A stretch of DNA of 64,000 nt from an uncultured Candidatus Binatia bacterium (GTDB lineage: Bacteria; Desulfobacterota; Binatia; UBA9968; JAJDTQ01). The stretch spans positions 3,947,665-4,011,664 of the forward strand of contig OZ253480.1 of the NCBI GenBank assembly GCA_965261895.1. Reading direction: 5' to 3'. Positions 4,080 to 30,647 of this stretch are shown here, piece by piece. The notes under the pieces are model-generated. The model had not been told where the DNA came from, ran no database searches, and saw only the letters and a program-made list of their open reading frames with translations. A program made the position numbers and the translations under genes. Positions within the stretch are counted from its first letter, which is position 1. Each line of letters starts with the position of its first letter.

Positions 4080-4738
4080 GCGCCACGGTGGAAGACAGAA
4101 GCAGGCTGGTGCTGGCTGCCTTGGGCCACGCCGGGCTTGGGGACCGAGAGACGGTGGTTCTCGTCGGCTCCTGCGCCCGTGGCGTCACGAATTCGCGTAG
4201 TGACATAGACATCCTTGTTCTCTGTGATGATCGAAATCGTATTCGGCTGAAACGTCCGGGCGATATTCACCTGCAACAGAACAGCCGTTCACGTTTCCTC
4301 AAGCGACTAAAGGAGGGCGACGACTATCCGGCGTGGGCGTTGCGCTTTGGCATACCCATACACGATCCGGGTGGTTGGTGGGCCGAACAGGCAGCTTCGG
4401 AGGCTGCGACCCCTCATTGGCCGGATTGGCGCGCCAAGTTAGAGCACGCCAGAAAGCGTACGAGGATGGCGTCCGAGTTGCTTGAGGTTGAAGACTCGTA
4501 CGCGGCATCGGAGGAGTTATTGTTTGCAGCTAGCCACATAGCCAGAGCAACCCTCCTTAGAGCCGGCGTGTTTCCCCTCTCGCGACCAGAGTTGCCCTCG
4601 CAGTTGAAAGCTGTCGACCCGAACCTTGCCCGGTTGCTTGAATTGCTTATGACCGGCGACACGGATGCGGTTAATCTGCAGGAGGGTGAGTCGCTTGTCA
4701 TGCACCGGATCAAGGAGCTTTCCGATGAGCCTCGATAG
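4076..4738 (+). CDS. Nucleotidyltransferase (MNT-like) domain protein
   Basis: Pol-beta-type NTase motif GSCARGVTNSRSDIDILVLCDD (GS...D.D). A C-terminal helical extension follows. Confidence 0.65.
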   Translation: MSATVEDRSRLVLAALGHAGLGDRETVVLVGSCARGVTNSRSDIDILVLCDDRNRIRLKRPGDIHLQQNSRSRFLKRLKEGDDYPAWALRFGIPIHDPGGWWAEQAASEAATPHWPDWRAKLEHARKRTRMASELLEVEDSYAASEELLFAASHIARATLLRAGVFPLSRPELPSQLKAVDPNLARLLELLMTGDTDAVNLQEGESLVMHRIKELSDEPR

Positions 4739-4856: not shown

Positions 4857-5510
4857 GTGACGAAGTCGAACGACAAATTGCGCGTTGAAATTGATCACCA
4901 ACAGTGGTCAAGCTTCTTCGATGAGTTGAAGTCGGAATCGGATCGGGGAGCGACGATTCTGGCCGGCGTGTGGATCGAGCAGTTGCTTGAACGCAAGCTC
5001 GCTACCTTGTTTACGGAAGGCAACTCGGATGCACGCAGGAGACTTTTCGACTTCAACGGGCCTTTCTCCGACTTCTCGTCCAAGATTCTTGCCGCATATT
5101 GTCTCGGCTGGATTGACTCGGACATCCACCACGATATTGATCTGGTTCGCAAGATCAGGAATCGCTTCGCCCATAGCCTCCATGGGTTGGATCTCGAAAG
5201 TCCACCGGTTCGACAGCTTATCGATGAATTTAAGGTTGCGGATCGTCACTACTACGATTGGACGGAGCTTCGAGCTGTCGCGACCGTGGATGGAAAAGGA
5301 TTCGTACTTTATACAGGCGAGCCACCGGAGGAAGCCGGAGACCCTTTGAAGATTCAGGCGTTTCGGTACAAATGGATCGTCAGCGTATTGGTCGCCGCGG
5401 TCGCGGCTAGTCTCGGCCTCGCTGTTCGGGATCAAGACCCCCAAACCGAAACCAATCCAGACCTAGGATCGGAACCGGACAGACCCGCACCGAAGACGAC
5501 GGGCGAGTGA
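4857..5510 (+). CDS. DUF4145-like (HEPN-family) protein with a C-terminal transmembrane helix, translationally coupled to hsdR
   Basis: An Rx4-6H HEPN-type motif (VRKIRNRFAHSLHG) and a hydrophobic C-terminal segment WIVSVLVAAVAASLGLAV. The stop overlaps the hsdR start (ATGA at 5507-5510). In many genomes DUF4145 is fused to the HsdR C-terminus. Confidence 0.4.
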   Translation: MTKSNDKLRVEIDHQQWSSFFDELKSESDRGATILAGVWIEQLLERKLATLFTEGNSDARRRLFDFNGPFSDFSSKILAAYCLGWIDSDIHHDIDLVRKIRNRFAHSLHGLDLESPPVRQLIDEFKVADRHYYDWTELRAVATVDGKGFVLYTGEPPEEAGDPLKIQAFRYKWIVSVLVAAVAASLGLAVRDQDPQTETNPDLGSEPDRPAPKTTGE

Positions 5511-8281
5511 GCGGAATGCTGAGCCCCAACCAGACCCCCGAACAGGCTGCCCGGGAAAGGATCGACGCGATGTTGTCCCACGCGGGCTGGGTCGTTCAGG
5601 ACAAGAAGAAGATCGACTTCAGCGTCAGCCTCGGGGTCGCCGTTCGCGAGTACCAGACTGATGTCGGTCCGGCGGACTACGTTCTCTTCGTCGACAAGAA
5701 GCCGGTTGGGGTCGTCGAGGCCAAGCCGAAGGTTTTGGGCCAGAAGATCACCACGGTCGAGGAACAATCCTCGGCCTACGCCGCCGCCAAGCTCAAGTGG
5801 GTGAACAATCGGGAGCCGCTGCCGTTCGTCTACGAGTCGACCGGCGTGTTGACCCGCTTCACCGATGGTCGCGATCCGAAGCCGCGGTCGCGTGAGGTGT
5901 TCTGCTTCCCTAGGCCGGAAATGGTTCAGGACTGGCGCGCCCAGCCGGCCTCGCTCCGTGAACGGCTCCAGGGGCTTCCGGTATTGGACCCGGCTGGCCT
6001 CCGGGCGTGCCAAATCAACGCCATCGAGAAGCTGGAGGCTTCCTTCAAGGATGATCGCCCGCGTGCCCTCATTCAGATGGCTACCGGCTCGGGCAAGACC
6101 TACACCGCCATTGGCTCCATCTACCGGCTGCTCAAGCACGCTGACGCCAAGAGGGTCCTGTTTCTCGTCGACACCAAGAATCTGGGCGAACAGGCCGAGC
6201 AGGAATTCATGGCCTATGTGCCCGGCGACGACAACCGCAAGTTCACCGAGCTTTATAACGTCCAACGCCTCAGGTCGTCCTTCGTCGCCAGGGACAGCCA
6301 TGTCTGTATCAGCACCATCCAGCGGGTGTACTCGCTCCTGAAGGGCCAGGAGTTGGACGAGTCCGCGGAGGAAACCAATCCGGAGGAGCTGGTTCAGCCC
6401 AAACAACCCATGCCGGTGGTCTACAATGAGAAGATTCCACCGGAGTTCTTCGACTTCATCATCATCGATGAGTGTCATCGGTCGATCTACAACCTCTGGC
6501 GTCAGGTCCTGGAGTATTTCGACGCCTATCTCATCGGCCTGACCGCTACACCGGACAGCCGCACCTACGGGTTCTTCAAGACCAACGTCGTCAGCGAATA
6601 CGACCACGAGCAGGCCGTCGCCGACGGCGTCAACGTGGGCAACGAGGTCTATGTCATCGATACGGAGAGGACCCGTCACGGCGGCCAGCTCAAGGCCAAC
6701 CAGCAGATTGAGAAGCGCGAGCGCCTGACTCGTCTGAGGCGCTGGCAAATACAGGAGGAGGACGCGACCTATGCCGGCAATCAGCTCGACCGCTCCGTAG
6801 TCAACCCGGATCAGATCCGCACCGTCGTCCGCACGTTCCGCGCCAAGCTGCCGGAGATATTCCCCGGCCGCAACGAAGTCCCGAAGACACTAGTCTTTGC
6901 CAAGACGGACAGCCACGCCGACGACATCATCCAGACCGTGCGCGAGGAGTTCGCCGAGGGCAACGAGTTCTGTAAGAAGATCACCTACAAGGTAGAAGAA
7001 GACCCGAAATCCGTCCTCGCGCAGTTCCGCAACGACTACTACCCGCGCATCGCCGTGACCGTGGACATGATTGCCACGGGCACGGACGTGAAGCCATTGG
7101 AATGCCTGCTCTTCATGCGCGACGTGCGGAGCCGCAACTACTTCGAACAGATGAAGGGCCGCGGCACCCGCACACTCGGCCACGATGATCTCAGGAAAGT
7201 CACCCCCTCGGCCCTCACCGCCAAGACCCACTACGTGATCGTGGACGCCGTGGGGGTCACCAAGTCGCTCAAGACCGTCAGCCAGTCGCTCATCACCAAG
7301 CCGTCCGTGCCGCTCAAGGATCTGGCCATGGGCGTGATGATGGGCGCTCGCGACGAAGACACAGTGAGCTCCCTGGCCGGCCGCCTCGCCCGGCTCAATC
7401 AACAACTCGATCCCGCGGAGCAGGAACGGATCAAGGCGAAGGCTGGGGGCACCGAGTTGACCGCTATCGTCGGCGATCTCCTGTCAGCCCTCGATCCTGA
7501 CCGCATCGACGAGAAGGCGCGCGAGATCGAGCCGGTGTTCGAAGGCGCCAGGCCCTCGCCAGTGGCTTACGACAAGGCGCGGGAACAGTTGGTCGGTGAC
7601 GCCGCGGCCGTGCTCAACGGGGAGTTGATCGAGTTGATCGACTCGATCCGCCGCGACAAGGAACAGACCATCGACCACGAGAGCCTGGACACCGTCCTGC
7701 GCGCCGAATGGGAGGGCGACGCCCAGGAGAACGCGAAGGCCATGGCCCAGGACTTCCAGACCTATCTGGAAGACCACCGCGACCGGATCGAAGCCCTGAC
7801 CATTTTCTACAGCCAGCCGCACCGCCGCCGCGACTTGACCTTCGTCATGATCCGAGAGGTCTTCGACAGGCTCAAGAGCGACCGCCCTCGATTGGCCCCA
7901 TTGCGAGTCTGGCAGGCCTACGCCCTGCTCGACGAATACAAAGGCGGTCAACCGGCCAGTGATTTGACGGCGCTGGTTGCCTTGATCCGCCGGGTCTGCG
8001 GCATTGACGCGACCTTATCGCCCTACGCGGAAACCGTGCGCCGCAATTTCCAGAACTGGATCATGACCCACCACAGCGGCGGCGGCGAGAAGTTCAACGA
8101 GGAGCAGATGGAGTGGCTCCGCATGATGCGGGACCACATCAGCCATTCCTTTCATCTGGAACGCAACGATCTCGACATGGCCCCGTTCGATGGCAAGGGC
8201 GGCATGGGCCGGATGTACAATCTGTTCGGCGACCGGATGGATGGCGTTATTGCTGAGTTGAATGAGGCGTTGGCGGGGTAA
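5507..8281 (+). CDS. hsdR: Type I restriction enzyme R subunit (HsdR)
   Basis: 924 aa. It has an N-terminal HSDR_N nuclease region (DYVLFVDKKPVGVVEAKP), helicase motif I ATGSGKTYTA, and motif II DECHRS. The hsdS start codon abuts its stop. Confidence 0.85.
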   Translation: MSGMLSPNQTPEQAARERIDAMLSHAGWVVQDKKKIDFSVSLGVAVREYQTDVGPADYVLFVDKKPVGVVEAKPKVLGQKITTVEEQSSAYAAAKLKWVNNREPLPFVYESTGVLTRFTDGRDPKPRSREVFCFPRPEMVQDWRAQPASLRERLQGLPVLDPAGLRACQINAIEKLEASFKDDRPRALIQMATGSGKTYTAIGSIYRLLKHADAKRVLFLVDTKNLGEQAEQEFMAYVPGDDNRKFTELYNVQRLRSSFVARDSHVCISTIQRVYSLLKGQELDESAEETNPEELVQPKQPMPVVYNEKIPPEFFDFIIIDECHRSIYNLWRQVLEYFDAYLIGLTATPDSRTYGFFKTNVVSEYDHEQAVADGVNVGNEVYVIDTERTRHGGQLKANQQIEKRERLTRLRRWQIQEEDATYAGNQLDRSVVNPDQIRTVVRTFRAKLPEIFPGRNEVPKTLVFAKTDSHADDIIQTVREEFAEGNEFCKKITYKVEEDPKSVLAQFRNDYYPRIAVTVDMIATGTDVKPLECLLFMRDVRSRNYFEQMKGRGTRTLGHDDLRKVTPSALTAKTHYVIVDAVGVTKSLKTVSQSLITKPSVPLKDLAMGVMMGARDEDTVSSLAGRLARLNQQLDPAEQERIKAKAGGTELTAIVGDLLSALDPDRIDEKAREIEPVFEGARPSPVAYDKAREQLVGDAAAVLNGELIELIDSIRRDKEQTIDHESLDTVLRAEWEGDAQENAKAMAQDFQTYLEDHRDRIEALTIFYSQPHRRRDLTFVMIREVFDRLKSDRPRLAPLRVWQAYALLDEYKGGQPASDLTALVALIRRVCGIDATLSPYAETVRRNFQNWIMTHHSGGGEKFNEEQMEWLRMMRDHISHSFHLERNDLDMAPFDGKGGMGRMYNLFGDRMDGVIAELNEALAG

Positions 8282-9871
8282 ATGTCACTAGGGGTTTCAC
8301 CGTTAGAAATCGTGGCGAAGGGCATTTATCATCTCCTCGCCAAAGCGGATCACTGGAAGCGTGTTTTCGTGTCCGAAGTCGCTCACGTGCAGAACGGCTT
8401 CGCGTTCAAATCCTTGTACTTTGATCCCGACCACGGGGTTCCACTCGTTCGCATCCGCGACATCTCCAAAGAAGAAACAGAACACCGGTATTTTGGGGAA
8501 TTCGATGACCAGTACTTGATAGAGAAGGGCGACATTCTTGTCGGAATGGACGGCGATTTCGCCGTGTCCCGATGGAGGGGTGGCAAGGCACTTCTAAATC
8601 AACGTGTATGCAAGGTCACAGTAACAAGTGATCGCTTTGATGAACGCTTTTTGTTCCTTTGCCTACAGCCTTTTCTGGACGCAATTAACGCCGAGACGTC
8701 GTCAGTAACCGTAAAGCATCTTTCTTCAAAGACTGTCGACGAAATTCCATTGCCCCTGCCGCCACTCGCGGAACAGCACCGCATCGTCGCCAAGATCGAA
8801 GAACTCTTCTCGGAACTCGACAAGGGCATCGAGACCCTGAAGACGGCACGCAGGCAGCTTGAAGTCTATCGACAGTCTGTCCTGAAGCACGCCTTCGAAG
8901 GGAAGCTCACGGCGCAATGGCGCGAAGAGAACAAGGACAAGCTTGAGACGCCTGAGCAATTGTTGGCTCGCATCAAGAAGGAGCGGGCGGCGCACTATGA
9001 GCGGCAACTCCAGGAGTGGAAGGCTAATGCCAACAGAGGGGAAAGGACTATCAGACGCAGTTTGGCTTCCAGGCCTGCCAAGCTGAAAGATGTTGCGCGA
9101 TTATCGCTCGAGGAGACGGAGACGCTTTCACCTCTCCCGGGTGGTTGGTCATATGTGCGGTTGGGTTTGGTGATCGACGAGCCCAAATACGGCACTTCCA
9201 AGAAATGTGACTACAATTTCGAGGGAACGGGGGTTCTAAGGATCCCTAACGTCGTCCGCGGCCTCATTGATGACGCTGATTTAAAGGGTGCTTGCTTTGA
9301 AGACGATGAGAAATGGGCCTACTCTTTGAGAAGCGGCGATATTCTGATGATCCGGTCCAACGGCAGCATTTCGATAGTTGGGAAGTGTGCGCTGGTCTCC
9401 AGTGCAGAGCAACGGTATCTGTATGCAGGATACCTAATTCGCATTCGCCCCAACCCCGCCGTGGTGCTTCCGGAATACCTTGCCGTGCTCATATCTAGTC
9501 ATCCGGTACGAGTTCAGATCGAAGGCTTTGCGAAATCGACGAGCGGCGTGAACAACATAAACTCTGGTGAAATCCAGTCATTGATCGTGCCATTGTGCCG
9601 TGTACAAGAACAACAGGAGATGGTTGCGCAGTTGTCCGCGATGATCTCGGGGATGGACGCGACTACCACCGAGATCGACGAACAGTTGCGTACAACCGAT
9701 ACGCTCCGTCAAGCGGTCCTGAAGAAAGCCTTCGCCGGTCAACTAGTCCCCCAAGACCCCGGCGATGAGCCTGCTTCTGTTCTTCTGGAGAAGATCAGGA
9801 CGGAGCGGGCGAAGGCCGGCAAGGGCGGCCCAACCGCCAGAAGAAACAAAAAGGCGAAGACTGCGGCATGA
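8282..9871 (+). CDS. hsdS: Type I RM specificity subunit (HsdS), two target-recognition domains
   Basis: 529 aa. It has a duplicated TRD architecture and conserved central and C-terminal coiled-coil repeats (LPPLAEQHRIVAKIEELF; LRQAVLKKAF). GC content is lower than the surrounding genes. Confidence 0.8.
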   Translation: MSLGVSPLEIVAKGIYHLLAKADHWKRVFVSEVAHVQNGFAFKSLYFDPDHGVPLVRIRDISKEETEHRYFGEFDDQYLIEKGDILVGMDGDFAVSRWRGGKALLNQRVCKVTVTSDRFDERFLFLCLQPFLDAINAETSSVTVKHLSSKTVDEIPLPLPPLAEQHRIVAKIEELFSELDKGIETLKTARRQLEVYRQSVLKHAFEGKLTAQWREENKDKLETPEQLLARIKKERAAHYERQLQEWKANANRGERTIRRSLASRPAKLKDVARLSLEETETLSPLPGGWSYVRLGLVIDEPKYGTSKKCDYNFEGTGVLRIPNVVRGLIDDADLKGACFEDDEKWAYSLRSGDILMIRSNGSISIVGKCALVSSAEQRYLYAGYLIRIRPNPAVVLPEYLAVLISSHPVRVQIEGFAKSTSGVNNINSGEIQSLIVPLCRVQEQQEMVAQLSAMISGMDATTTEIDEQLRTTDTLRQAVLKKAFAGQLVPQDPGDEPASVLLEKIRTERAKAGKGGPTARRNKKAKTAA

Positions 9872-9941
9872 ACACTGCCCTCATCGTGCTCCCCGCCTAT
9901 TATGCCACCCGGCCCCACGTGCACGACGCCAAGGTAACGGT

Positions 9942-11528
9942 ATGACTGGCAAGCTTCCCATCAACCTTCACGATCTGCTGCGCCAGCGGACCATCGAGGG
10001 CGAGCGCGTCGAGTACAAAGCCGGTTGGAATCCGAAGGCCGTGCTGCACGCCATCTGCGCCTTCGCCAACGACTTCCACAATCTGGGCGGCGGTTACGTG
10101 GTACTGGGAGTCGAGGAACAAAACGGCCGTCCAGTCTTGCCGCCCATGGGCATCAATCCCGATTCGGTTGACGCGATACAGAGAGAACTGCTGAATCTTG
10201 GACACTCGGCCATACAACCTCACTACCACCCGCTTACAGCCACTTATGAAGTCAATGGCCGGACAATCCTCGTATTGTGGGCGCCCGGCGGCGAAACCCG
10301 ACCCTACAAGGCCAGACTCAGCCTGACGCCGAAACGGCAAGAGTGGGGCTATTTCAACCGCAAGCACAGCAGCACCGTCCGCGCCAAGGGCCAAGACGAG
10401 CGCGAGCTGCTAAGCCTGACCGCCACCGTGCCCTTTGATGATCGATATCGCCAAACGGCTTCACTGGATGACCTGTCCCATCGGCTCATCCGGGAGTTTC
10501 TGCGGGATATTGGCAGCGACCTCGCTTCTGAAGCAGCCGATCTATCGGTGGCGGCCCTTGGTCAGCGTATGAATATCGTCGGCGGACCGCCCGAGGCAGT
10601 GTTTCCCAAGAACGTCGGCTTGCTGTTCTTCAACGACCGCCCGCACGACTTCTTCCCCGCAACCCAGATCGACGTAGTGTGGTTCCCGGACGGCCCGGGT
10701 GGGGACCAATTCGAGGAAAAGGAATTCCGCGGTCCTCTGTCGGTCATCCTCAGCGAGGCGATCAGCTACATTGAGCGGAACTACCTGAAGGAAACAATCG
10801 TCAAGCATCCTCACAAGCCGGAAGCTGAGCGATTCTGGAACTTTCCCATCGGCGCAATCGAGGAGGCGCTGGTCAATGCCGTCTACCATCGCTCTTACGA
10901 GGAGCGGGAGCCAGTGGAGGTGCGCATCACGCCTGACGAGTTGGTGGTCTTGAGCTTCCCCGGCGCCGACCGATCCATCCGCATGGAAGACTTCAAGAAA
11001 GGGTAAGCCGTCAGCCGCCGCTACCGCAATCGCCGAATTGGAGAGTTTCTCAAGGAGCTAGAACTGGCCGAAGGCAGGTCAACTGGGGTACCCAAGATTC
11101 TGCGGGCCATGCGGCAAAACGGCTCCCCGGCCCCGATCTTCGAGAGCGACGAAGATCGCACCTGGTTTCTGGTCCGTCTGCCGGTGCATGAACGGGCGCG
11201 CCCGGAGCCATCCGGGCAAGATACCCAGCAAGACACCGAACATGACACCGGGCAAGTCACCGGGCAAGATACCGGGCAAGTCACCGATCATGTCGAGCAA
11301 CTGGTGGCGGCCCTCACCGGAGAGATGAGCCGCGCTGAATTGCAGGCGGCGTTGAGCTTGACTCACCGGGACTACTTCACCGCGACGTATCTGCGACCCG
11401 CCCTCGAAGCCGGCCTGATTGAAATGACGCTCCCCGACAAACCAACCAGCCGAAACCAGCGTTATCGGCGCACCGCGGCCGGCGAAGCCCTGGCGCGACA
11501 AGCCAAGACGAAGGACTCCTCCGCATGA
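9942..11528 (+). pseudogene. AlbA_2 (Schlafen-like) + HATPase_c_4 'RecG-like' putative regulator commonly found in type I RM operons, interrupted by an in-frame TAA at 11004-11006
   Basis: The N-terminal part (9942-11006) starts MTGKLPINLHDLLRQRTIEGERVEYK. After TAA the same frame continues (AVSRRYRNRRIGEFLKELELAEGRSTGVPKILRAMRQNGSPAPIFESD...) to 11528, which is the canonical C-terminal portion of this family. A QDT/GQVT low-complexity repeat lies at ~11217-11290. Confidence 0.6.
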
Positions 11529-13018
11529 ACACCGCCCCCATCGTCTCCAAAGTCTGGAGCTTCTGTACCACCCTGCGCGACGACGGGGTGGGCTACGGCG
11601 ACTACCTGGAACAGCTTACCTATCTGATCTTCCTCAAGATGGCTGACGAGTACGGGAAGCCGCCGCGCAATCGTGATGTGGGCATCCCAGCCGAGTACAA
11701 CTGGCCGAGCCTGAGGTCGAAGCGGGGCGCGGAACTGGAAAACCACTACGTCACGCTGCTTCGTGAGCTTGGCGCCAAGAACGGCATGCTGGGCCAGATC
11801 TTCACCAAGGCCCAGAACAAGATCCAGGATCCGGCGAAGCTGTATCGCCTGATCGATATGGTGGACAATACCGAGTGGGTCACCATGGACGCCGACATCA
11901 AGGGCGACATCTATGAGGGCCTGCTGGAGAGGAATGCCGAGGACACGAAGTCGGGCGCGGGGCAGTATTTCACGCCGCGCGCCCTGATCCGCGCCATGGT
12001 GGAATGCGTTCGGCCCGAGCCAAGCAGGCTGATCGCCGACCCCGCCTGCGGCACGGGCGGGTTCTTCCTGGCGGCCTACGACTTCCTCACCAACCAGGAC
12101 AACTTCAACCTCGACCAGCGGCAGAAGGCATTTCTGAAGCACGAGGCCTTTCACGGTAACGAGATCGTGGCCAACACCCGTCGCCTCTGTCTGATGAACA
12201 TGTTCCTTCACAACATCGGCGAGATCGACGGTGGCGCGCCAATATCGCCCAATGACTCGCTCGTGGCCGATGCCGGACAGCGCTTCGACTACGTGTTCGC
12301 GAACCCTCCTTTCGGCAAGAAGAGCTCCATGAGTTTCACCAATGAGGAGGGCGGGCAGGAGACGGACGATCTGACCTACAACCGGCAGGATTTCTGGGCC
12401 ACTACCTCAAACAAGCAGCTCAATTTCGTGCAGCACATTCGGACCATGCTCAAGAGCGACGGCCGCGCCGCGGTCGTGGTGCCGGACAACGTGCTGTTCG
12501 AGGGCGGCGCCGGCGAGACCATCCGGAAGAAGCTGCTGGACAACACCGACCTCCACACCATCCTGCGCCTTCCCACCGGCGTGTTCTACGCCCAAGGGGT
12601 CAAAGCCAACGTGATCTTCTTCGACAATCGCGAAGCCAGCCCCGACCCGTGGACGAAACAGGTCTGGTACTACGACTACCGCACCAACATTCACCACACG
12701 CTCAAGAAGAAGCCCATGCGCTACGAGGACCTGCTGGATTTCGTCAAGTGCTACAACCCGCGGAACCGGCATCAGCGCAAGGCCGCCTGGGATGAGAACG
12801 ACGCCCCCGAGGGCCGTTGGCGCAGCTACAGCTATGAGGAGCTCAGGGCCCGCGACAAGACCAGCCTCGACGTCTTCTGGCTCAAAGACAAGAGTCTGAC
12901 CGACCTGGACAACCTGCCGGAACCCGACGATCTCGCCGAAGAGATCATCGAGAACCTCGAAGCGGGCCTTAACAGTTTCCGCGAGGTGCTCGCCGGCTTG
13001 CGGCAGGCAGGTAGTTGA
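11525..13018 (+). CDS. hsdM: Type I RM N6-adenine DNA methyltransferase subunit (HsdM)
   Basis: 497 aa with the SAM motif DPACGTGGF and the catalytic motif IV FANPPFG. Its start overlaps the stop of the preceding gene fragment. Confidence 0.85.
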   Translation: MNTAPIVSKVWSFCTTLRDDGVGYGDYLEQLTYLIFLKMADEYGKPPRNRDVGIPAEYNWPSLRSKRGAELENHYVTLLRELGAKNGMLGQIFTKAQNKIQDPAKLYRLIDMVDNTEWVTMDADIKGDIYEGLLERNAEDTKSGAGQYFTPRALIRAMVECVRPEPSRLIADPACGTGGFFLAAYDFLTNQDNFNLDQRQKAFLKHEAFHGNEIVANTRRLCLMNMFLHNIGEIDGGAPISPNDSLVADAGQRFDYVFANPPFGKKSSMSFTNEEGGQETDDLTYNRQDFWATTSNKQLNFVQHIRTMLKSDGRAAVVVPDNVLFEGGAGETIRKKLLDNTDLHTILRLPTGVFYAQGVKANVIFFDNREASPDPWTKQVWYYDYRTNIHHTLKKKPMRYEDLLDFVKCYNPRNRHQRKAAWDENDAPEGRWRSYSYEELRARDKTSLDVFWLKDKSLTDLDNLPEPDDLAEEIIENLEAGLNSFREVLAGLRQAGS

Positions 13019-16480: not shown

Positions 16481-16916
16481 ATGGCGTGAGACCTGGAGAA
16501 TGGCGCGTCCATTTCGAGACAGTCGCGGCGAAAGACTTCTCAGGCCCCTCGGGGACCGCGACAGGATCGCGGTTGTCGTAAAGGCCGTGGTGCGCGCGGC
16601 TGATGCATGGGGTTTGACCAATATCGAGGGCGCGGCCCTGTTCGACGTGCCCACGGCCACCTGGAGCCGCATGAAGGCCGGCAGCTACAGGGGCACACTC
16701 GATCAGGACAAGGTGACACGGGCAAGTCTGATAATCGGGTTGTTCAACGGGCTCGCGTCACTCTTCAACGGCCCGCTGGCCCATGGCTGGCCCAACGTTC
16801 CCAACACCGGCCCCGTTTTCGACGGCAGGACGCCGGTCCAGGTCATGTGCGAAGGCGGCATCCCCGCCATGATGACGGTACGACAGCACATCGATGCGCT
16901 GAGAGGCGGGGCATGA
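16476..16916 (+). CDS. Xre/MbcA/ParS-like antitoxin (DUF2384), second diverged copy
   Basis: 146 aa, highly similar to 2358-2774 at ~85-90% nucleotide identity by eye. The ATGA overlaps the toxin start. Confidence 0.7.
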   Translation: MIWRETWRMARPFRDSRGERLLRPLGDRDRIAVVVKAVVRAADAWGLTNIEGAALFDVPTATWSRMKAGSYRGTLDQDKVTRASLIIGLFNGLASLFNGPLAHGWPNVPNTGPVFDGRTPVQVMCEGGIPAMMTVRQHIDALRGGA

Positions 16917-17626
16917 TCCGCGTCGCGGACCTCCCGGTCCGTGAAGTCGTCGAGCCGGCGGCGGTCAGGTTGGTCACAGCCGGCTACCTGGACAAGCCGG
17001 CAATGGCGCTGCTCGCGGATGACCCGTCTGAATTCGCAATTCTGGAAGAGATCGAAGGGCTCACATCGGCCCGGGCGCCTTCATCGCCCACGGTCCCGTC
17101 CGGTATCCAACCGGGGGAATTGCTGACGGAAGCGGACGGGTACGGCTGGGCCTCCGTGAACGCCGCGTTCTGCCACACGCGCCCCACGGGCAACCGGTTC
17201 AACGGCCCGGAACGCGGAGCCTGGTATGCGTCCTATGGGAACAGGGTGACCGACACGGCGAAGGCCGAGGTCGCGTGGCATCTCACGCGGGAGCTTCGCG
17301 CCACCGGAATCTACGAGAACATCACGACATACAGGGAACTCCTGGCCGGCTTCATGACCCGCTTTCATGATCTCGGCGAGAGGACGGATGACGTGGTCTA
17401 CAGCGGAGATCCTGAGGTGGCCCATCCCGCCGGACAGGCGCTGGCCCGGGACATCCTGGCAGGCGGCGGAAACGGGGTGCTTTACCCGTCCGCGCGGCAT
17501 GAAGGCGGGAGGTGTCTGGCGGCGTTACGGCCCAATCTTGTGCAGAACATCCGCGAGGGTGAGATGTGGGTGTTCAGATGGGCGGGGTCGGCGGAGGTGG
17601 AGATCTCTAGAGGAGCGGCATCGTGA
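16913..17626 (+). CDS. RES-domain toxin, second diverged copy
   Basis: 237 aa from MIRVADLPVRE, near-identical in motifs to 2771-3484. Confidence 0.75.
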   Translation: MIRVADLPVREVVEPAAVRLVTAGYLDKPAMALLADDPSEFAILEEIEGLTSARAPSSPTVPSGIQPGELLTEADGYGWASVNAAFCHTRPTGNRFNGPERGAWYASYGNRVTDTAKAEVAWHLTRELRATGIYENITTYRELLAGFMTRFHDLGERTDDVVYSGDPEVAHPAGQALARDILAGGGNGVLYPSARHEGGRCLAALRPNLVQNIREGEMWVFRWAGSAEVEISRGAAS

Positions 17627-17759
17627 CCTCGTGAGAATGGGAGTTTCAAGGAAGGCGTTCATGCGCAGTAGCAGCATTCAATCTTTTGCCCACACACAAA
17701 CAAGGGTTGTTTCTCGATGCAAGAAAACTTGTGCCACAACAAGAAGTCTTGTAACGTAG

Positions 17760-19271
17760 TTGGCGATGGCTGGCATTCTGATCAGTTGGATCGGTCAAAC
17801 TGACCTTCGGGCACCGGGGGAAGGGCCGCTCGTAGGGAAGGGTCCGATAGCCCAGGCGCTCGACACAAACTCCTATGACGCTGCCGTGCTGATTAGCGAT
17901 TACTCGAAAAGAGAGGTGACGCCGTTCCTACACTGGCTCCGACCGCAGATCGGAGCGCAAGTATCTGTCCACTACAAGCCGTTGTCCGGTCCCACAAACT
18001 TTGGCGAGATATACGAAGCTGCGGCTCAGGTTGTGACAGAGTCGCTCGCGCGACACGGCAGGGATTCTGAGCTGACCTTTCACCTGAGCCCAGGGACCCC
18101 AGCCATGGCGGCGGTCTGGATTGTTCTCGCCAAGACGCGGTTCCCCGCTGATCTGATCGAGTCTTCGCCCAAGCACGGTGTACGGACGGCCTCAGTACCC
18201 TTCGATATATCGGCAGAGTTTGTTCCCGACCTCCTCCGAGGTCCGGATGAACGCCTCGCGAAGCTCACCGCCGGGCTTCCTCCCGAGGCCCCGGAGTTCG
18301 CCGATATCATTCACCGTAGCCGCGTCATGGCTCGCGTAATCGCCAAGGCGCGTCGCGTTGCAGCCCGGTCAGTGTCTATACTTATAGAGGGTGAGACGGG
18401 TACCGGAAAGGAATTGCTGGCCCGGGCCATCCACCGTGCTAGCCTTCGGCGGGATAAGCCCTTCAAGGCCGTGAACTGCGGCGCAATACCGGCTGAACTC
18501 GCAGAATCCGAGCTCTTTGGCCATGAGAAAGGTGCCTTTACGGGTGCGGACAAAAAGAGGGTTGGCCACTTTGAGGCCGCGAGTGGCGGGACGCTCTTCC
18601 TTGACGAGGTCGGCGAGCTTTCGCTTGCCGTACAAGTAAAGCTGCTTCGTATTCTCCAGGAGGGGGAGGTGCTGCGTGTCGGTTCGACGACGCCGATCAA
18701 GGTGGACGTTCGAATCATCGCGGCAACAAACCGGGCCCTCGCCGATGAAGTCGCCGCAGGTCGCTTCAGGGAGGATCTATTCTATCGCCTTGCGGTGGCG
18801 GGTCTGAAACTGCCCCCCCTGAGAGAGAGAAGAGGCGACCTGAACCTTCTCCTGGATCAGTTGCTCGCCCAAGTCAACGAGGAACGCGCACAGCAGCCGG
18901 GCTATGAGCACAAGAAATTTTCTGTGAGCGCAAGAAATATTCTTCTCACTCATCCGTGGCCGGGTAACGTTCGAGAGTTGCTGAATACGCTTCATCGGGC
19001 GACGCTCTGGACGCCAGGACCGACAATCCAGGGTGAAGATGTGCGGGAGGCATTGCTGCCGGCGATAGACCGAAAGGCCTCGGGCATCCTCGACCGTCCG
19101 CTCGGCGATGGTCTCAACCTCCTGGATTTATTGGCTTCGGTGGCGCGGCACTATCTTGTGCGCGCCCTTGACGAGGCCCAGGGTAACAAGACACAGGCGG
19201 CCCGCTTGGTAGGGCTTTCGAGCTATCAGACGTTCACGAACTGGTTGGGTAAGTACGACGTGAAGCCGTGA
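17760..19271 (+). CDS. Sigma54-dependent transcriptional activator (bEBP) with a non-receiver, RtcR/CARF-like N-terminal sensor domain
   Basis: AAA+ sigma54-interaction domain with Walker A GETGTGKELLARAIH, the GAFTGA loop (FGHEKGAFTGADKK), Walker B LFLDEVGEL, and a C-terminal Fis-type HTH. The ~170-aa N-terminal domain lacks receiver Asp residues and recalls the RtcR CARF-like domain (..HLSPGTPAMAAVWIVLAKTRFPADLIESSP..). Confidence 0.75.
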   Translation: MAMAGILISWIGQTDLRAPGEGPLVGKGPIAQALDTNSYDAAVLISDYSKREVTPFLHWLRPQIGAQVSVHYKPLSGPTNFGEIYEAAAQVVTESLARHGRDSELTFHLSPGTPAMAAVWIVLAKTRFPADLIESSPKHGVRTASVPFDISAEFVPDLLRGPDERLAKLTAGLPPEAPEFADIIHRSRVMARVIAKARRVAARSVSILIEGETGTGKELLARAIHRASLRRDKPFKAVNCGAIPAELAESELFGHEKGAFTGADKKRVGHFEAASGGTLFLDEVGELSLAVQVKLLRILQEGEVLRVGSTTPIKVDVRIIAATNRALADEVAAGRFREDLFYRLAVAGLKLPPLRERRGDLNLLLDQLLAQVNEERAQQPGYEHKKFSVSARNILLTHPWPGNVRELLNTLHRATLWTPGPTIQGEDVREALLPAIDRKASGILDRPLGDGLNLLDLLASVARHYLVRALDEAQGNKTQAARLVGLSSYQTFTNWLGKYDVKP

Positions 19272-19287
19272 TGGCACGGACCTTGCC
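19272..19287 (+). promoter_or_regulatory. Sigma54 (RpoN) -24/-12 promoter TGGCAC-GGACC-TTGC immediately after the bEBP stop and ~50 bp upstream of the hsdR-like start
   Basis: Exact match to the TGGCAC-N5-TTGC consensus at 19272-19287: TGGCAC 19272-19277, 5-nt spacer, TTGC 19283-19286. Confidence 0.6.
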
Positions 19288-19334
19288 TGAGAGAGTACCT
19301 GTTGGAAGAAAGCCGGCCACGTACGGATGAGGCA

Positions 19335-21623
19335 ATGAGTCGAAACGAAGACAGAACATGCCGGGAACTGATCGAGCCCGCCCTGGAAGAGGCCGGGTGG
19401 GAGTGGGACCGGCAGGTCGTGATCGGCCCTGGCCGCGTCAACCTCACCGGCGAGTCTATGTACGACTCGTCTCAGCAGATCATCGCTGACTACGTGCTGC
19501 GTCTCTGGCGTATGCCGCTCGCCATTCTTGAGGCCAAGGCAGAGGTGGAATCAGCGACCGATGGGATGCAGCAGGGCTCCCGGTATGCTGACCGTCTTCG
19601 GCTTCGATTCTCGATCGCGTCGAACGGGTGCGACTACATCCTCACTGACAACGAAACCGGCGAATACGAGTCGTTCGACACCCCACCCACACCTGGGGAC
19701 ATTCTCTCCCGTCTCGGGCGCAACATCGTTTGGGAAGAGTGGCGTCCGGTTTTTGAGGCTCCGTGGCACGAGGACCAAATTACTCGCAAGAAGGTCCGCC
19801 CCTACCAGGAGATGGCCATCTTCGAGACCCTTTATCGCTTCAGTCAAGGCGAAAAGCGGGTACTCCTGCTAATGGCCACGGGTACGGGCAAAACCTTCAC
19901 GGTCTTTCAGCTCGCATGGAAGCTCATGCGCGGGGACGTTCTCCGGAACAACCGCCTCCTCTTCCTCACCGATCGCAACAGCCTCAAGGACCAAGCCTAT
20001 CGGGCCTTCGCCGGTTTCACCTTGGACGAGCGCGTTGTTATCGACAAGGATCTGGTCAGCCGAGGGGAGCATCTCGTCGGAAAGATCTTCTTCGCCAACT
20101 ACCAGAATCTTAACGAGGAACTGAGTGGGAAAAAGCTCTACGAGCACTTCGATCCGGATTTCTTCGACTTGGTCGTCGTGGACGAGTGTCACCGTTCCGG
20201 CTTCGGCGACTGGTTTGGAGTCCTCGATCGCTTCAAGTCAGCATATCAGTTAGGCTTGACCGCCACCCCGCGGGAAATCGATCAGAGCCGTCATACCCTT
20301 ACCGAACTGGAACTCCGGCGTGACACTTACGAGTACTTCGGGGAGCCGAAGTACGTTTACTCACTGAAGCAGGCCATAGAAGACGGCTACCTCGTCCCTT
20401 ATCTCCTAGAGGAGCGCATCTCGAACCTGGATGAGGATGGCTACACCGGACCGGACGGCAAGCAATACACAACAAAGAACTTCGAACGCGACATTCGTCT
20501 GCCCGAGCGGACTCGCGTTATCGCGGAGGACCTTTGGTCCATTCTCGGGAAGTACGGGCTCCGGGACGAGAAGACCATCGTCTTCTGCGTCGACGACACG
20601 CATGCAGCATTCGTGGCGGCGGAGTTGCGTCGCCTTTCAGGTGATGGCAACTACGCCGCGCGGATTACCAGATCCGAGCGTAACTCACATCAGCTTGAGC
20701 GCAACTTCGCAGAAGTCGGTCGCGCCAAGCCACGGGTGGCGGTCACGGTCGATCTGTTGACCACCGGCTTTGACGCACCCGACGTCAAAAACATCGTCTT
20801 CGCTCGGCCCGTTAAGAGCGCCATCCTCTATAAACAGATGAAAGGCAGGGGAACCCGCCTTTGCGACGACATCGACAAGCGCTACTTCACCATTTTCGAC
20901 TATGCCGGCGCGAATCTGCTGGAGGATGCTGAGTTCGATGGTCATCCTGCAAACCTGCAAACAAGCCGCAAGCCGCAACCGCAGAAAAAGGCGCCCGAGG
21001 CTGTCAAGGAGAAACCCGTCGGAGAGGGTGTTTCGGTCTACATTTCTTCCACGGAGCGTTACGTCTGCTTGGCCGATGGCCGAAAGATCCCTTTTGATGA
21101 GTACCGGGAGCAGTCACGCAACGCCATTCGGAGCATTGCGCCAACCAACGTCGACGAACTCTTGGATATTTGGATCGACAAGAACACACGCCGGGACTTA
21201 CGAGGTGAGCTTGCAGACCGGGATATTCATGTCGCGGCGTTCCGGCACTACCTTGAACTTGATGGATCGGATGATGTCGACATTCTTGCCAAGGTAGGGT
21301 TTGAACTGGTGCGGGTTCCATCGCGTCACGATCGCGTTGTTCGTTTCTGGGATGCCGAGGAGAACTGGTTGCTCGTTCAACTCGGCGAGCATGCCGTCCC
21401 CGATGACAATCGCTTCAAGACGTACTTCTGGCAGACCGGCCTCGACCACTATTCGCTCTACGGCATCGACGATCTTGAGAAGGGCGGCACCTACAGCGCA
21501 CCTCAGTTCGTGGAACAGTTCGGAAGCTTCAGCCGGTTGCTGAGTCTCTATGGAGGAGCCGACAAGCTGAGGACGGATTTGGAGGAAGTGAAGCAACACC
21601 TTTACGTGCCGATGTTGGCGTAG
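19335..21623 (+). CDS. Restriction enzyme R subunit (HsdR-like: HSDR_N nuclease + SF2 helicase)
   Basis: Start MSRNEDRTCRELIEPALEEAGWEW preceded by GAGG. Helicase motif I MATGTGKTFT and motif II DECHRS. A longer ORF beginning at 19302 is possible. Confidence 0.75.
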   Translation: MSRNEDRTCRELIEPALEEAGWEWDRQVVIGPGRVNLTGESMYDSSQQIIADYVLRLWRMPLAILEAKAEVESATDGMQQGSRYADRLRLRFSIASNGCDYILTDNETGEYESFDTPPTPGDILSRLGRNIVWEEWRPVFEAPWHEDQITRKKVRPYQEMAIFETLYRFSQGEKRVLLLMATGTGKTFTVFQLAWKLMRGDVLRNNRLLFLTDRNSLKDQAYRAFAGFTLDERVVIDKDLVSRGEHLVGKIFFANYQNLNEELSGKKLYEHFDPDFFDLVVVDECHRSGFGDWFGVLDRFKSAYQLGLTATPREIDQSRHTLTELELRRDTYEYFGEPKYVYSLKQAIEDGYLVPYLLEERISNLDEDGYTGPDGKQYTTKNFERDIRLPERTRVIAEDLWSILGKYGLRDEKTIVFCVDDTHAAFVAAELRRLSGDGNYAARITRSERNSHQLERNFAEVGRAKPRVAVTVDLLTTGFDAPDVKNIVFARPVKSAILYKQMKGRGTRLCDDIDKRYFTIFDYAGANLLEDAEFDGHPANLQTSRKPQPQKKAPEAVKEKPVGEGVSVYISSTERYVCLADGRKIPFDEYREQSRNAIRSIAPTNVDELLDIWIDKNTRRDLRGELADRDIHVAAFRHYLELDGSDDVDILAKVGFELVRVPSRHDRVVRFWDAEENWLLVQLGEHAVPDDNRFKTYFWQTGLDHYSLYGIDDLEKGGTYSAPQFVEQFGSFSRLLSLYGGADKLRTDLEEVKQHLYVPMLA

Positions 21624-21633: not shown

Positions 21634-23163
21634 ATGGCGCAAAGTGAGGCAAGGAACGAAGGCAAGCAGTTGTCCAACGGCACGACTGAGCACCGCCGCC
21701 AGGAGGTACAACAGGCCATCAAGAGTGCCTGTGACCAACTCCGAGACGACGGTGTGGAACCGCGTAACTACGTGGAGCAGCTCGCTTGGTTGTTCTTCCT
21801 CAAGGCATTTGACGAAATGGAGAGCCGCCGCGAAGAAGAGGCAGCCTTTGACGGCTCGTCGTACCGGCGAAGACTCGACGGCGAGTATAGTTGGTCGAGT
21901 TGGTCATCGATGTCCAACCGACCCGACCAGATGCTGGAATTTGTTGACGGGAAGCTCTGGTCACACCTCAAGAGCTTCGGAGAAACCGAGCATACCCGGC
22001 AATTCGCAAACGACCCGGTGGCCGAGCGATTCCGCCGCATCTTCTCGACGGTTCGCAACCATTCCCGTCGCGGCGCGAGCTTCGCGCGGGTCACTCAACA
22101 AGCCAATCGTCTCCAATTTGGTGACGAGACGGACGTTATAGTCCTTTCGGAACTCTATGAGGGGCTTCTGAAGGATGTAGCTGCCGACTCTGCCGGCTAT
22201 GCTGGCGAATTCTACACGCAGCGTCACGTCATCCGAGCCATGGTGGATGTGGTCCATCCCAAAATCGGAGACCGCATCTACGACCCGTGCTTCGGAACGG
22301 CTGGTTTTCTTGTCGAGTCGGCGGAGTACATCCGGAAGACGGCGGGCACCCTTAGTGGCTCGAATCTCGACCGCCTCCAGGAAAAGACCTTCTACGGGAT
22401 TGAACAAAAGCCGTTGACCTATCTCTTGGGCACGATGAATATGCTGCTGCATCGTATCGAGGGTGCGAACCTCGAACTCGGGAACACGCTAGAGCTGCAT
22501 GCGACCAACGTCTCGGAGAAAGACCGCTACGATGTTATCCTCTCGAATCCACCCTACGGCGGAAAGATGGCCCGCGAGCTTCAGACCAATTTCACAATCC
22601 AATCGGGCTCCACCGAGATACTCTTCCTGCAGCACATCATGACGCACTTGGCCAAGGGTGGCCGTGCCGCAGCGATCATCCCCGAGGGAGTCCTGTTTCG
22701 TGGCGGTCCCGACGCCAGGGTCCGTGAACGACTCCTCCGCGAATTCGACGTTCACACGATCCTCTCGCTGCCGGCAGGATGTTTCCTGCCGTACACGGGC
22801 GTGAAAACGAATGTGCTCTTCTTCACCCGCCGCAAGGATGACCGAGGCACTGGGGACGTTTGGTACTATGAGCTCACCAACGACGGGTTTGACCTTAAGT
22901 CGACGCGGCGGCCGATCCAGGGAAACCAAATTCCAGACTTCCTCACTAAGTGGGAGAAGCGAGCGAAAGGAGAGAACTCCTGGTCGGTCTCCGCGAAGGA
23001 GATCGCCGAGCAGAACTGGGACCTATCTGCCCGTAATCCTCAACAAGGAGGAAATATCGGACACAAGCCCGCGCTGGAGTTGGTTCAGTCCATCAAGGCG
23101 AAGGAAGAGAGAGTGGTCGAGCTTCTTGACGAACTGCAGGAGTTGCTGGAGGGTACCCGATGA
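21634..23163 (+). CDS. N6-adenine DNA methyltransferase subunit (HsdM-like)
   Basis: 509 aa with the SAM motif DPCFGTAGFL and the catalytic motif LSNPPYGG. Confidence 0.8.
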   Translation: MAQSEARNEGKQLSNGTTEHRRQEVQQAIKSACDQLRDDGVEPRNYVEQLAWLFFLKAFDEMESRREEEAAFDGSSYRRRLDGEYSWSSWSSMSNRPDQMLEFVDGKLWSHLKSFGETEHTRQFANDPVAERFRRIFSTVRNHSRRGASFARVTQQANRLQFGDETDVIVLSELYEGLLKDVAADSAGYAGEFYTQRHVIRAMVDVVHPKIGDRIYDPCFGTAGFLVESAEYIRKTAGTLSGSNLDRLQEKTFYGIEQKPLTYLLGTMNMLLHRIEGANLELGNTLELHATNVSEKDRYDVILSNPPYGGKMARELQTNFTIQSGSTEILFLQHIMTHLAKGGRAAAIIPEGVLFRGGPDARVRERLLREFDVHTILSLPAGCFLPYTGVKTNVLFFTRRKDDRGTGDVWYYELTNDGFDLKSTRRPIQGNQIPDFLTKWEKRAKGENSWSVSAKEIAEQNWDLSARNPQQGGNIGHKPALELVQSIKAKEERVVELLDELQELLEGTR

Positions 23164-24371
23164 GTTGGCCCGTGGCCCGCTTGGGGGATGTAGCCCAAGT
23201 GAATCCAAGACGTCACAGCGGTCTACGGTCGCTAGCTGGAAATGTGGAGGTGACGTTTGTTCCGATGGCTGCTGTGGACGAGGAAACCGGCACGATCTCT
23301 TGTCGAGAGGTGAAGCCACTTGGCGACGTTCGGAGGGGGTTGACCGCCTTTGCAGAAGGCGATGTGATTTTCGCCAAAATTACACCTTGCATGCAAAACG
23401 GGAAGTCGGCCATTGCTCATGGGCTTGTCAATGGCCTTGGCTTCGGCTCCACGGAGTTTCATGTACTCCGCCCGGGTCCAGATGTTCTTCCGGAGTGGCT
23501 GTGGTACGTCGTTCGACAACGCTCCTTCCGCGAGGAGGCCCGACGACACTTCCGCGGCTCTGCTGGTCAGCAGCGCGTCCCAGCGAGCTTTATCGAGCAA
23601 CACATGATTCCCCTGCCTTCCATTGGGTTGCAGAGACGAATCGTTGGGCAGGTTCGGTGGGCATTGGTACGAGTGAGTGAGATCCAAGATCTCCGTCGGA
23701 AGTCGCTGGCAGAGGCAACTGCACTAGAGGAAGCTGTTTTCTCGGATTTTATTGTGGATTTCATGAAGAACGCCTACGTCTCTATCGTTTCCCTTGGCGG
23801 CATCCTGGTCCGTGCACAGTATGGGTCATCCTCGAAGGCCAATACTGATGGAGAGGGTATACCTATTCTGCGGATGGGAAACATCCAGAATGGACACTTG
23901 GATGTGAGCGACCTCAAGCACATCAGTCTTTCCGCGAAGGAACTGACCAAGTACCGACTCAGCGAAGGAGACATACTTTTCAATCGGACCAACTCACTCG
24001 AGCTAGTCGGAAAGTCAGCAACCTTCACCGCATTGAAGGGAGACTGGGTGTTCGCGTCGTACCTGATCCGCCTTGATGTCGACCGTCGCAAGGCCCTCCC
24101 GGAGTACGTGACGGCGGTCATCAACAATCGGATAGGGCGAGACTACGTCTATCGCACAGCGCGGCGTGCCATTGGAATGGTGAACATCAACGCCAAGCAG
24201 ATTCAACGGCTGGAATTGCCGCTTCCCCCGTTGGCGGATCAGGAGTGGCTGGTCGGGCAAATGCGACGGGCTAAGACCGCAAGTGACAACATCCGAAGGG
24301 ATCTTGGCATGGAGGCTATAGAGGCCCTTCCTGATGCTATTCTCCACAAGGCCTTTGCGGGGGAGCTCTAA
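23160..24371 (+). CDS. Specificity subunit (HsdS-like), two TRDs
   Basis: 403 aa with ATGA overlap to hsdM. Conserved S-subunit repeats are present (LPLPSIGLQRRIV; LPLPPLADQEWLVGQM). Confidence 0.75.
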   Translation: MSWPVARLGDVAQVNPRRHSGLRSLAGNVEVTFVPMAAVDEETGTISCREVKPLGDVRRGLTAFAEGDVIFAKITPCMQNGKSAIAHGLVNGLGFGSTEFHVLRPGPDVLPEWLWYVVRQRSFREEARRHFRGSAGQQRVPASFIEQHMIPLPSIGLQRRIVGQVRWALVRVSEIQDLRRKSLAEATALEEAVFSDFIVDFMKNAYVSIVSLGGILVRAQYGSSSKANTDGEGIPILRMGNIQNGHLDVSDLKHISLSAKELTKYRLSEGDILFNRTNSLELVGKSATFTALKGDWVFASYLIRLDVDRRKALPEYVTAVINNRIGRDYVYRTARRAIGMVNINAKQIQRLELPLPPLADQEWLVGQMRRAKTASDNIRRDLGMEAIEALPDAILHKAFAGEL

Positions 24372-30008: not shown

Positions 30009-30647
30009 ATGCTGTATTGGGAGGAAGGTAACTCCGCCGAGGATGACACTTTTTGCTGGAAATGCGGGGAGTCCTATCTGCTGAACTGCCCCTCGTGTAA
30101 CCACCAACTCGGAAATGCGTTTGATACCATGAAGTCGGCGTTTGATGGGAAGCCGCGGAAGGTGCCTAACAAACCGGCATTCTGTGGCAAGTGCGGCAAG
30201 CCCTATCCCTGGACGTTAGCTGAGCATCAGAGAATTGAGGACGCTGGATTTTGGTCGCTGGTGCATCCCATGGTCATCAAGCTGGCAAGGCCTCGGTTTG
30301 AGACAGGTCACTATGCGGATGCGGTGGAAGCCGCGTTCAAGGGACTGAACAGCAACGTAAAAGAACTTTTTCTGACCGCGAAAGGGCGAGAACTCGACGG
30401 CCCGGACCTTATGAGGAAGGCGTTACGGACCGATGACGCCGTGCTCGTCTTAGGTGACCTTACAACAGAGTCTGGCCGCAACATTCAAGATGGTTACTCT
30501 CATATTTTTGCGGGTGCCATGCAGGCAATCCGCAATCCCAGTGCCCATGCAAACACGGAGATTGGTTCGAATCGAGCATGCCACCAATTGATGCTTGCAA
30601 GCCTTCTTTTCCGTCAAATTGATGAAAGAAGGAAAGGCGATAGGTAG
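30009..30647 (+). CDS. Double zinc-ribbon + TIGR02391 (Hypoth_Ymh) HEPN-family Abi-like protein
   Basis: N-terminal Cys pairs CWKCG...CPSCNH...CGKCGKPYPW. The C-terminal Ymh domain carries the HEPN Rx4-6H motif (IRNPSAHANTEI). A GTGCCCaaacGGGCAC hairpin sits just upstream of the ATG. Confidence 0.55.
   Translation: MLYWEEGNSAEDDTFCWKCGESYLLNCPSCNHQLGNAFDTMKSAFDGKPRKVPNKPAFCGKCGKPYPWTLAEHQRIEDAGFWSLVHPMVIKLARPRFETGHYADAVEAAFKGLNSNVKELFLTAKGRELDGPDLMRKALRTDDAVLVLGDLTTESGRNIQDGYSHIFAGAMQAIRNPSAHANTEIGSNRACHQLMLASLLFRQIDERRKGDR

Follow-up and report, generated by a model that had tools for sequence, protein, structure and literature searches.

A predicted sigma-54 promoter at the stop codon of a CARF-domain activator gene ahead of a Type I restriction-modification operon in an uncultured Candidatus Binatia bacterium

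Here, we report a 15-nucleotide element, TGGCAC-GGACC-TTGC, which is very probably a real sigma-54 (RpoN) promoter, through which a compact regulatory cassette would activate a Type I restriction-modification (R-M) operon. The element lies in a 64,000-nucleotide stretch of DNA (here called the window) from an uncultured Candidatus Binatia bacterium (NCBI GenBank assembly GCA_965261895.1, contig OZ253480.1, positions 3,947,665 to 4,011,664, forward strand). Its parts would be a bacterial enhancer-binding protein (bEBP) gene read from a sigma-70-type promoter of its own, two palindrome pairs, and the −24/−12 element immediately behind the stop codon of that gene. Sigma-54 control of R-M systems by regulators of this kind has already been predicted by others; the cis-regulatory anatomy is the addition made here.

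Results

The bEBP gene ends in ...GTGAAGCCG TGA TGGCACGGACCTTGC C..., with the stop codon at positions 19269 to 19271 and the motif following directly as TGGCAC (19272 to 19277), the five-base (N5) spacer GGACC (19278 to 19282), and TTGC (19283 to 19286). This readout agrees with an original prediction, made from the sequence of the window, of an exact TGGCAC-N5-TTGC right after the bEBP stop codon; the start was placed correctly, and the end, set at 19287, was one base too far. The GG at −24 and the GC at −12 are both present in an exact TGGCAC-N5-TTGC context, and base 19287 is C, where the extended consensus TTGCW favors A or T. Because standard sigma-54 geometry puts the GC at −12, a transcription start is predicted near 19298. 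The distance from the motif to the ATG of hsdR (19335) is 49 nt, close to the 50 nt given originally, but an ATG reported at 19302 for a longer open reading frame (ORF) is in fact TTG. The hsdR ORF could formally open at this TTG; homologues begin with MSRNE at the position matching 19335, which is therefore the likely true start. The exact motif occurs once in the 64 kb (both strands scanned). Shuffled sequence of the same length is expected to hold 0.14 exact matches, and one or more turned up in 13 of 100 shuffles, so the single match alone is weak evidence.

The evidence that carries the promoter assignment is its conservation at the orthologous position. Eighty genomic loci were fetched with an alignment restricted to the CARF domain, so as to keep unrelated bEBPs out, and promoters were counted in the 74 loci, the window included, in which the orthologous bEBP gene is complete. 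The loci span Latescibacterota, Gemmatimonadota, Planctomycetota, Myxococcota, Desulfobacterota, Acidobacteriota, Magnetococcales, Gammaproteobacteria, and others. Within −25 to +20 of the bEBP stop codon, 57 of the 74 carried a match of at least 9/10 to TGGCAC-N5-TTGC, 29 of them exact, where 0.1 and 0.006, respectively, were expected from the background rate, for which the same 2.69 Mb were scanned on both strands. Sixty-one loci match at 8/10 or better; the motif begins right at the stop (offset 0) in 37 of them and at an offset of +1 to +4 in 17, so that 54 of 61 lay 0 to 4 nt past the stop. The 57 sites carried 47 distinct N5 spacers, and consensus positions that had played no part in their selection also fitted, with G after TGGCAC in 41 and A or T after TTGC in 47. 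The preceding stop codon was TGA in 38, TAA in 16, and TAG in 3; since it varies, conservation of the motif is not a coding artifact. This pattern, an element held at one place while its spacer changes, is the one to be expected from a selected sigma-54 promoter and is not one that chance or a coding feature would give. The same layout is found on a Pseudomonas luteola plasmid (TAA-acc-TGGCACGATCCTGGC, then HsdR-M-S).

The rule does not extend to every relative. A more distant homologue on a Rhodoferax antarcticus plasmid (L081; NZ_CP019242) encodes a 57%-identical bEBP, has no obvious −24/−12 element at the bEBP stop codon, and leaves a 190-nt gap to the next genes, whose products are vWA, PP2C phosphatase, protein kinase, and large AAA proteins.

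The gene adjoining the promoter encodes a sigma-54 activator. Its product matches Sigma54_activat (3e-71), AAA_lid_14, and HTH_8 in Pfam, with the GAFTGA loop and Walker motifs intact; the first approximately 180 residues have no Pfam match. The PADLOC profile PDLC01995, RtcR_PspF2--CARF_AAA_HTH, covers the full length (E = 3.1e-199; residues 4 to 499 against profile positions 3 to 480 of 481), and other CARF profiles in PADLOC match more weakly. The protein thus has the CARF, sigma-54 AAA+, and helix-turn-helix (HTH) architecture of RtcR, which is also its best NCBIfam match (6e-104). The score of 348.7 bits falls below the equivalog cutoff of 650 for NF038308, and no RtcA or RtcB family match was found among the scanned large ORFs of the window; the bEBP is therefore RtcR-like but not RtcR. 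Although the activator gene had been recognized in the original prediction, its CARF sensor domain had been overlooked. A PDB sequence search returned solved relatives for the AAA+ and HTH parts only and none over the N-terminal domain. The family is large and well conserved (the best 120 matches are 64 to 95% identical), and no second bEBP was found in the window. Cultured carriers include Corallococcus sp. CA053C, Myxococcus qinghaiensis QH3KD-4-1, and Peristeroidobacter agariperforans KA5-B, in addition to P. luteola FDAARGOS_637 with its plasmid (NZ_CP044084).

Candidate binding sites for the regulator were found at two places. DNA upstream of the bEBP start, aligned for 55 loci, contains a conserved a.AAga..tCTTGTgt....acAAGa..tCTTGTA...T at fixed spacing, which resolves into two 14-bp palindromes, ACAAGAnnTCTTGT, 20 bp apart (pair A in the window). 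Overlapping with pair A is a sigma-70-like bEBP promoter, whose −35 reads TTGTgn and whose −10 reads TAnnnT across the aligned loci, with the last T kept in 47 of 55. The bEBP ATG lies 8 nt past the −10 hexamer in the window and 6 to 8 nt past it in about half of the aligned loci, a proximity from which the bEBP mRNA is predicted to be leaderless or nearly so. An autoregulated, near-leaderless bEBP mRNA would thus be implied in bacteria of many phyla.

A position weight matrix (PWM) of the palindrome gave 174 hits in 1.25 Mb, of which 100 fell within 100 nt upstream of the bEBP start. The only other cluster, 48 hits, fell in the +1100 to +1199 bin inside the bEBP gene, with almost none elsewhere. 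In the window, this second cluster corresponds to pair B, whose members start 362 nt (B1) and 342 nt (B2) upstream of TGGCAC; pair A lies about 1.53 to 1.55 kb upstream of it. An upstream activating sequence (UAS) had been suggested at 80 to 200 bp from the promoter, but that stretch holds no PWM palindrome match. Pair B encodes HKKFS...ARNIL with codons that are rare in genomes of 60 to 70% GC (AGA, AAT, CTT, TCT, and GCA). In a resampling of synonymous codons that followed the codon usage of the locus itself, 53 of 73 loci had a real PWM score above the resampled scores (P ≤ 0.01). Promoter at the stop codon and palindromes inside the gene co-occur (table 54/3/9/7; Fisher P = 6e-4), and L032, L042, L044, L051, L063, and L071 lack both, with ordinary GC-rich codons in place of the palindromes. 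Most of these loci belong to a divergent bEBP sub-branch (motif RLAPGARNLL in L042, L044, L051, L063, and L071), and the codons used at this place make the six a natural negative control.

Seventeen of 72 loci, among them L018, L020, L021, L023, L024, L035, and L049, have a divergent second sigma-54 promoter (TGGCAC-N5-CTGC, minus strand) 96 to 176 nt before the bEBP start (96 to 122 nt in 13); the window does not have one. Since this promoter lies just beyond pair A, pair A would stand within an estimated 100 nt or so of it, a typical enhancer distance. The gene behind it encodes a conserved protein of approximately 560 amino acids that begins MTNM.RT.QL and has no significant Pfam or PADLOC assignment, and in the myxobacterial loci L018, L020, L023, L024, and L035 its ATG follows the −12 element by 13 to 16 nt; the regulator probably controls this gene as well. 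Taken together, the clustering of hits, the codon constraint, the co-occurrence with the promoter, and the spacing of the divergent promoter make the palindromes likely, as candidates, to be the binding sites of the conserved Fis-type HTH.

Downstream of the promoter, HsdR, HsdM, and HsdS genes stand together as a Type I R-M system (Table 1), with hsdR just under the NCBIfam restrict_EcoAI cutoff (1e-150; 503 bits against 550). They are followed by a methyltransferase-specificity-NTPase fusion gene and an AAA_16 partner gene, and the gaps along hsdR-hsdM-hsdS-fusion-AAA_16 are 10, −4, 32, and −4 nt, all genes being codirectional. The fusion is matched in PADLOC by generic Type I methyltransferase and specificity models only, and the 529-residue AAA_16 protein has no PADLOC or NCBIfam match. 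The fusion recurs in 12 related loci, in 7 of which the AAA_16 partner stands behind it, and the pair is a candidate defense module, so far uncharacterized. A HEPN-like gene begins 92 nt after the AAA_16 gene and, judging by its orientation only, may be the last of the unit. An NmrA/DUF2867 ORF starts 2 nt past its stop, where the G+C content rises. A scan for terminators and sigma-70 consensus sites between 16.0 and 33.5 kb gave counts not above those of shuffles and located neither the operon end nor internal promoters; no terminator-like site was found between the bEBP gene and the promoter, and no sigma-70-like consensus ahead of hsdM.

Table 1. Features of the predicted cassette and the operon behind it, in window coordinates
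Feature	Position	Strand	Basis or remark
Palindrome A1, GCAAGAAAACTTGT	17719-17732	+	Candidate bEBP operator/UAS, putative binding site
Palindrome A2, ACAAGAAGTCTTGT	17739-17752	+	Candidate bEBP operator/UAS, putative binding site
Sigma-70-like bEBP promoter, −35 TTGTGC	17729-17734	+	Overlapped by pair A; 17-nt spacer to −10
Sigma-70-like bEBP promoter, −10 TAACGT	17752-17757	+	Overlapped by pair A
CARF / sigma-54 AAA+ / Fis-type HTH enhancer-binding protein gene, 501 aa	17766-19271	+	Pfam, PADLOC
Palindrome B1, ACAAGAAATTTTCT	18910-18923	+	Candidate enhancer (UAS) inside the bEBP coding sequence
Palindrome B2, GCAAGAAATATTCT	18930-18943	+	Candidate enhancer (UAS) inside the bEBP coding sequence; 20 bp from B1
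Sigma-54 −24/−12 element, TGGCACGGACCTTGC	19272-19286	+	Exact match and conservation across loci
hsdR, Type I restriction subunit (EcoAI/type IB-like)	19335-21623	+	Pfam ResIII, SWI2_SNF2, EcoEI_R_C, HSDR_N
hsdM, Type I methyltransferase	21634-23163	+	Pfam N6_Mtase 1e-65, HsdM_N; PADLOC MTase_I 1e-139
hsdS, specificity subunit	23160-24371	+	Pfam Methylase_S; PADLOC Specificity_I 2.5e-92
Fusion of HsdM-like methyltransferase, half-HsdS target-recognition domain, and AAA_16 NTPase, 1,308 aa	24404-28330	+	N6_Mtase 9e-43, Methylase_S, AAA_16
AAA_16 NTPase, partner of the fusion, 529 aa	28327-29916	+	Pfam AAA_16, 26.9 bits, below the cutoff of 32.6
Zinc-ribbon (DUF2321) and Hypoth_Ymh (HEPN-like) protein	30009-30647	+	Hypoth_Ymh 9e-29; PADLOC PD-Lambda-3_B 6e-16, Aga_HEPN 6e-9

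The cargo behind the promoter varies among loci. In most, the first gene encodes an HsdR-type protein of approximately 770 or 1,140 amino acids. In the Gemmatimonadota loci L007 to L010 and L012, the methyltransferase-S-AAA_16 fusion with its AAA_16 partner comes first, without HsdRMS, and in other loci AAA_15/21 ATPases, TPR proteins, or others take this place. A cargo that changes behind a constant bEBP and promoter is consistent with a portable regulator-enhancer-promoter cassette.

Two further observations concern the genes downstream in these arrays. An AAA_15/AAA_21 ATPase of approximately 550 amino acids, with best PADLOC hits to NsnB, PDC-M55A, and HEC-03B, lies downstream of hsdS in 17 loci (L014, L033, L035, L049, L050, L056, L062, L074, and others), followed in 11 by a protein of approximately 320 amino acids without a family match; the two are often found behind HsdRMS genes under predicted sigma-54 control. 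The arrays of L008 (approximately 17093, just past the AAA_16 gene) and L055 (approximately 14251) hold further exact TGGCAC-N5-TTGC matches several kilobases downstream on the plus strand, which may serve later modules as additional sigma-54 promoters.

This region of the window is a defense island. A second Type I R-M system (hsdR, 5507 to 8281; hsdS, 8282 to 9871; hsdM, 11525 to 13018) carries a Schlafen/AlbA_2 gene (9765 to 11006) between its S and M genes and has no associated bEBP or sigma-54 motif. RES-domain proteins are encoded at 2705 to 3484 and 16607 to 17626, and a nucleotidyltransferase at 4076 to 4738. From about 30.6 kb onward, the gene content resembles ordinary chromosome, with an NmrA/DUF2867 gene, a gene for a giant adhesin-like protein, a P450 gene, and efflux genes.

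Discussion

That a sigma-54 promoter serves the hsdR-led operon, as originally proposed, is strongly supported by its position, the adjacent activator, the candidate enhancers, and the tightly packed codirectional genes. A working model can be drawn by analogy with RtcR and other bEBPs, from which we infer binding, ligand, transcription start, operon extent, and basal expression. RNA polymerase with sigma-54 would wait as a closed complex on the −24/−12 element, with bEBP dimers on the intragenic pair B and also on pair A, where they would autoregulate the bEBP's own promoter. The CARF domain would block assembly of the AAA+ ring until a nucleotide ligand derived from infection or damage binds. 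The assembled ATPase would then loop over and touch sigma-54 via GAFTGA, the promoter would open, and transcription would run from about 19298 through hsdR-hsdM-hsdS and on into the fusion and AAA_16 genes, with the HEPN-like gene perhaps included. As nothing terminator-like lies between bEBP gene and promoter, read-through may supply basal methylase for self-protection; a bound closed complex could instead block it.

The sensing step has a precedent in RtcR, in which CARF is inhibitory, its deletion gives constitutive activity, and ligand, in the form of tRNA fragments whose ends carry a 2′,3′-cyclic phosphate, drives oligomerization (PMC7790460). The regulator described here shares its architecture (CARF, NtrC-type AAA+ with GAFTGA, and Fis-type HTH) with RtcR, the regulator of the RNA-repair operon rtcBA, which depends on sigma-54, in E. 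coli and Salmonella, and the same logic, CARF inhibition until ligand-driven oligomerization, would be expected. It differs in its cargo, a Type I R-M system with a methyltransferase-AAA_16 module, and in its arrangement, regulator and target being codirectional and the promoter directly joined to the regulator's stop codon.

The neighborhood has been described before. In the part of their paper that deals with these regulators, Makarova et al. (2014; PMC4012209) place RtcR-like CARF/NtrC-AAA+/HTH proteins near R-M genes and predict sigma-54-dependent activation downstream; the neighborhood is one of R-M genes, as here, and the link drawn in that part is one of gene association and prediction only. 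Bell et al. (2024; PMC11090510) describe superoperons led by an RtcR homologue at the 5′ end, with codirectional Type I R-M and ancillary defense genes following as they do in the window, Type I R-M standing ahead of Type II CoCoNuT, and propose an HTH-bound UAS. We considered whether the window holds an RtcR-led CoCoNuT superoperon and rejected this, because neither McrBC-like CnuB/CnuC nor CnuH helicase domains lie downstream and the island ends near 30.6 kb. The arrangement had originally been called highly unusual for a restriction system, which is overstated given its recurrence in 57 loci here and the predictions in both papers. In the searchable literature other than the 2020 CARF classification paper, we found no account of the stop-codon promoter, the palindromes, the intragenic enhancer, or experiments on the family, and a search for experimental sigma-54 control of hsdR matched only E. 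coli strain genotypes.

The palindrome layout recalls PspF-pspA and NtrC-glnA, in which tandem dyad bEBP sites act both as sigma-54 enhancer and as operator of the regulator's sigma-70 promoter. The pspF-pspA layout is reproduced where the divergent sigma-54 promoter is present, whereas in the window the nearest enhancer candidate is inside the regulator's coding sequence and the stop codon directly adjoins the promoter.

Several observations weigh against the proposed control. The candidate enhancer, at 329 to 362 bp from TGGCAC, is beyond the distance usual for bEBP enhancers, 80 to 150 bp. A loop assisted by IHF is unsupported, since an IHF-like site (WATCAANNNNTTR) between pair B and the promoter is absent from the window and present in 1 of 74 loci. 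Seventeen of the 74 loci have no good promoter match at the stop, and 17 of the 57 sites, mostly in Myxococcota by inspection, have TTGA in place of the canonical TTGC at −12. No RpoN-box ORF was found in the 64-kb window. The AlphaFold model of bEBP residues 1 to 185 is of only moderate confidence (pLDDT [predicted local distance difference test], 69; 80 to 94 over the first 110 residues). Lastly, a fully silent hsdM would leave the host DNA unmethylated at induction, so some basal expression must be assumed.

This last point leads to the alternative that fares best, namely that the promoter is real but only a booster, with the R-M genes expressed mostly constitutively by read-through from the bEBP sigma-70 promoter or from internal promoters. 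Type I systems require M2S1 for self-protection, read-through would meet no terminator-like site, and Bell et al. (PMC11090510) expect internal, RtcR-independent promoters in such loci. We nonetheless think it rather unlikely that this accounts for most expression, because the space ahead of hsdM is a 10-nt gap after hsdR with no sigma-70-like consensus, and two operators overlapping the conserved bEBP promoter suggest that its output is low and autoregulated. The alternative is compatible with activation by the cassette, from which it differs in emphasis.

It is considerably less probable, and in our judgment quite doubtful, that the site binds the sigma-54 holoenzyme but acts as a roadblock or insulator against read-through from the bEBP gene, or is fired by another bEBP. 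A closed complex at a promoter abutting the stop codon, without a terminator-like site, would stand in the path of read-through, and the unusual distance of the nearest candidate enhancer also counts in favor. Yet the promoter, the intragenic palindromes, and this bEBP family occur together, loci without the promoter are without the palindromes, and the bEBP and promoter stay constant while the cargo varies, which argues for a cognate pair; the window, moreover, offers no other bEBP. A chance motif without function, with the operon served by ordinary promoters or read-through, draws on the shuffle frequency and a G+C-rich genome but is hardly credible and effectively refuted by the locus counts (the same element 0 to 4 nt past the stop in dozens of loci of different phyla, against 0.1 expected) and by varying spacers between conserved flanks next to a sigma-54 activator gene.

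Activation of the operon by its adjacent bEBP therefore remains the preferred explanation. A wider proposal, about which we are slightly more hesitant than convinced, is that the CARF-bEBP gene works as a horizontally mobile, all-in-one cassette for inducible expression, made up of an operator-controlled, near-leaderless sigma-70 promoter, a rare-codon enhancer in the coding sequence, and a sigma-54 promoter fused to the stop codon, such that any defense cargo landing downstream becomes inducible by an infection or damage signal.

R-M systems are usually viewed as constitutive barriers tuned by small local controllers. Here, to judge from the sequence, a nucleotide-sensing CARF domain appears to be wired via sigma-54 to a Type I R-M operon and an uncharacterized methyltransferase-NTPase module; sigma-54 control allows very tight off-states and large induction. 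With the DNA parts now added (the promoter, the candidate enhancers, and the autoregulated bEBP promoter) and cultured carriers named, the prediction is directly testable, as are the signal read by the CARF domain and the means by which the cell avoids self-restriction once restriction is induced. If the wider proposal of a mobile cassette is true, the Type I system behind the promoter in the window would be an alarm-triggered second line of defense and not a constitutive barrier.

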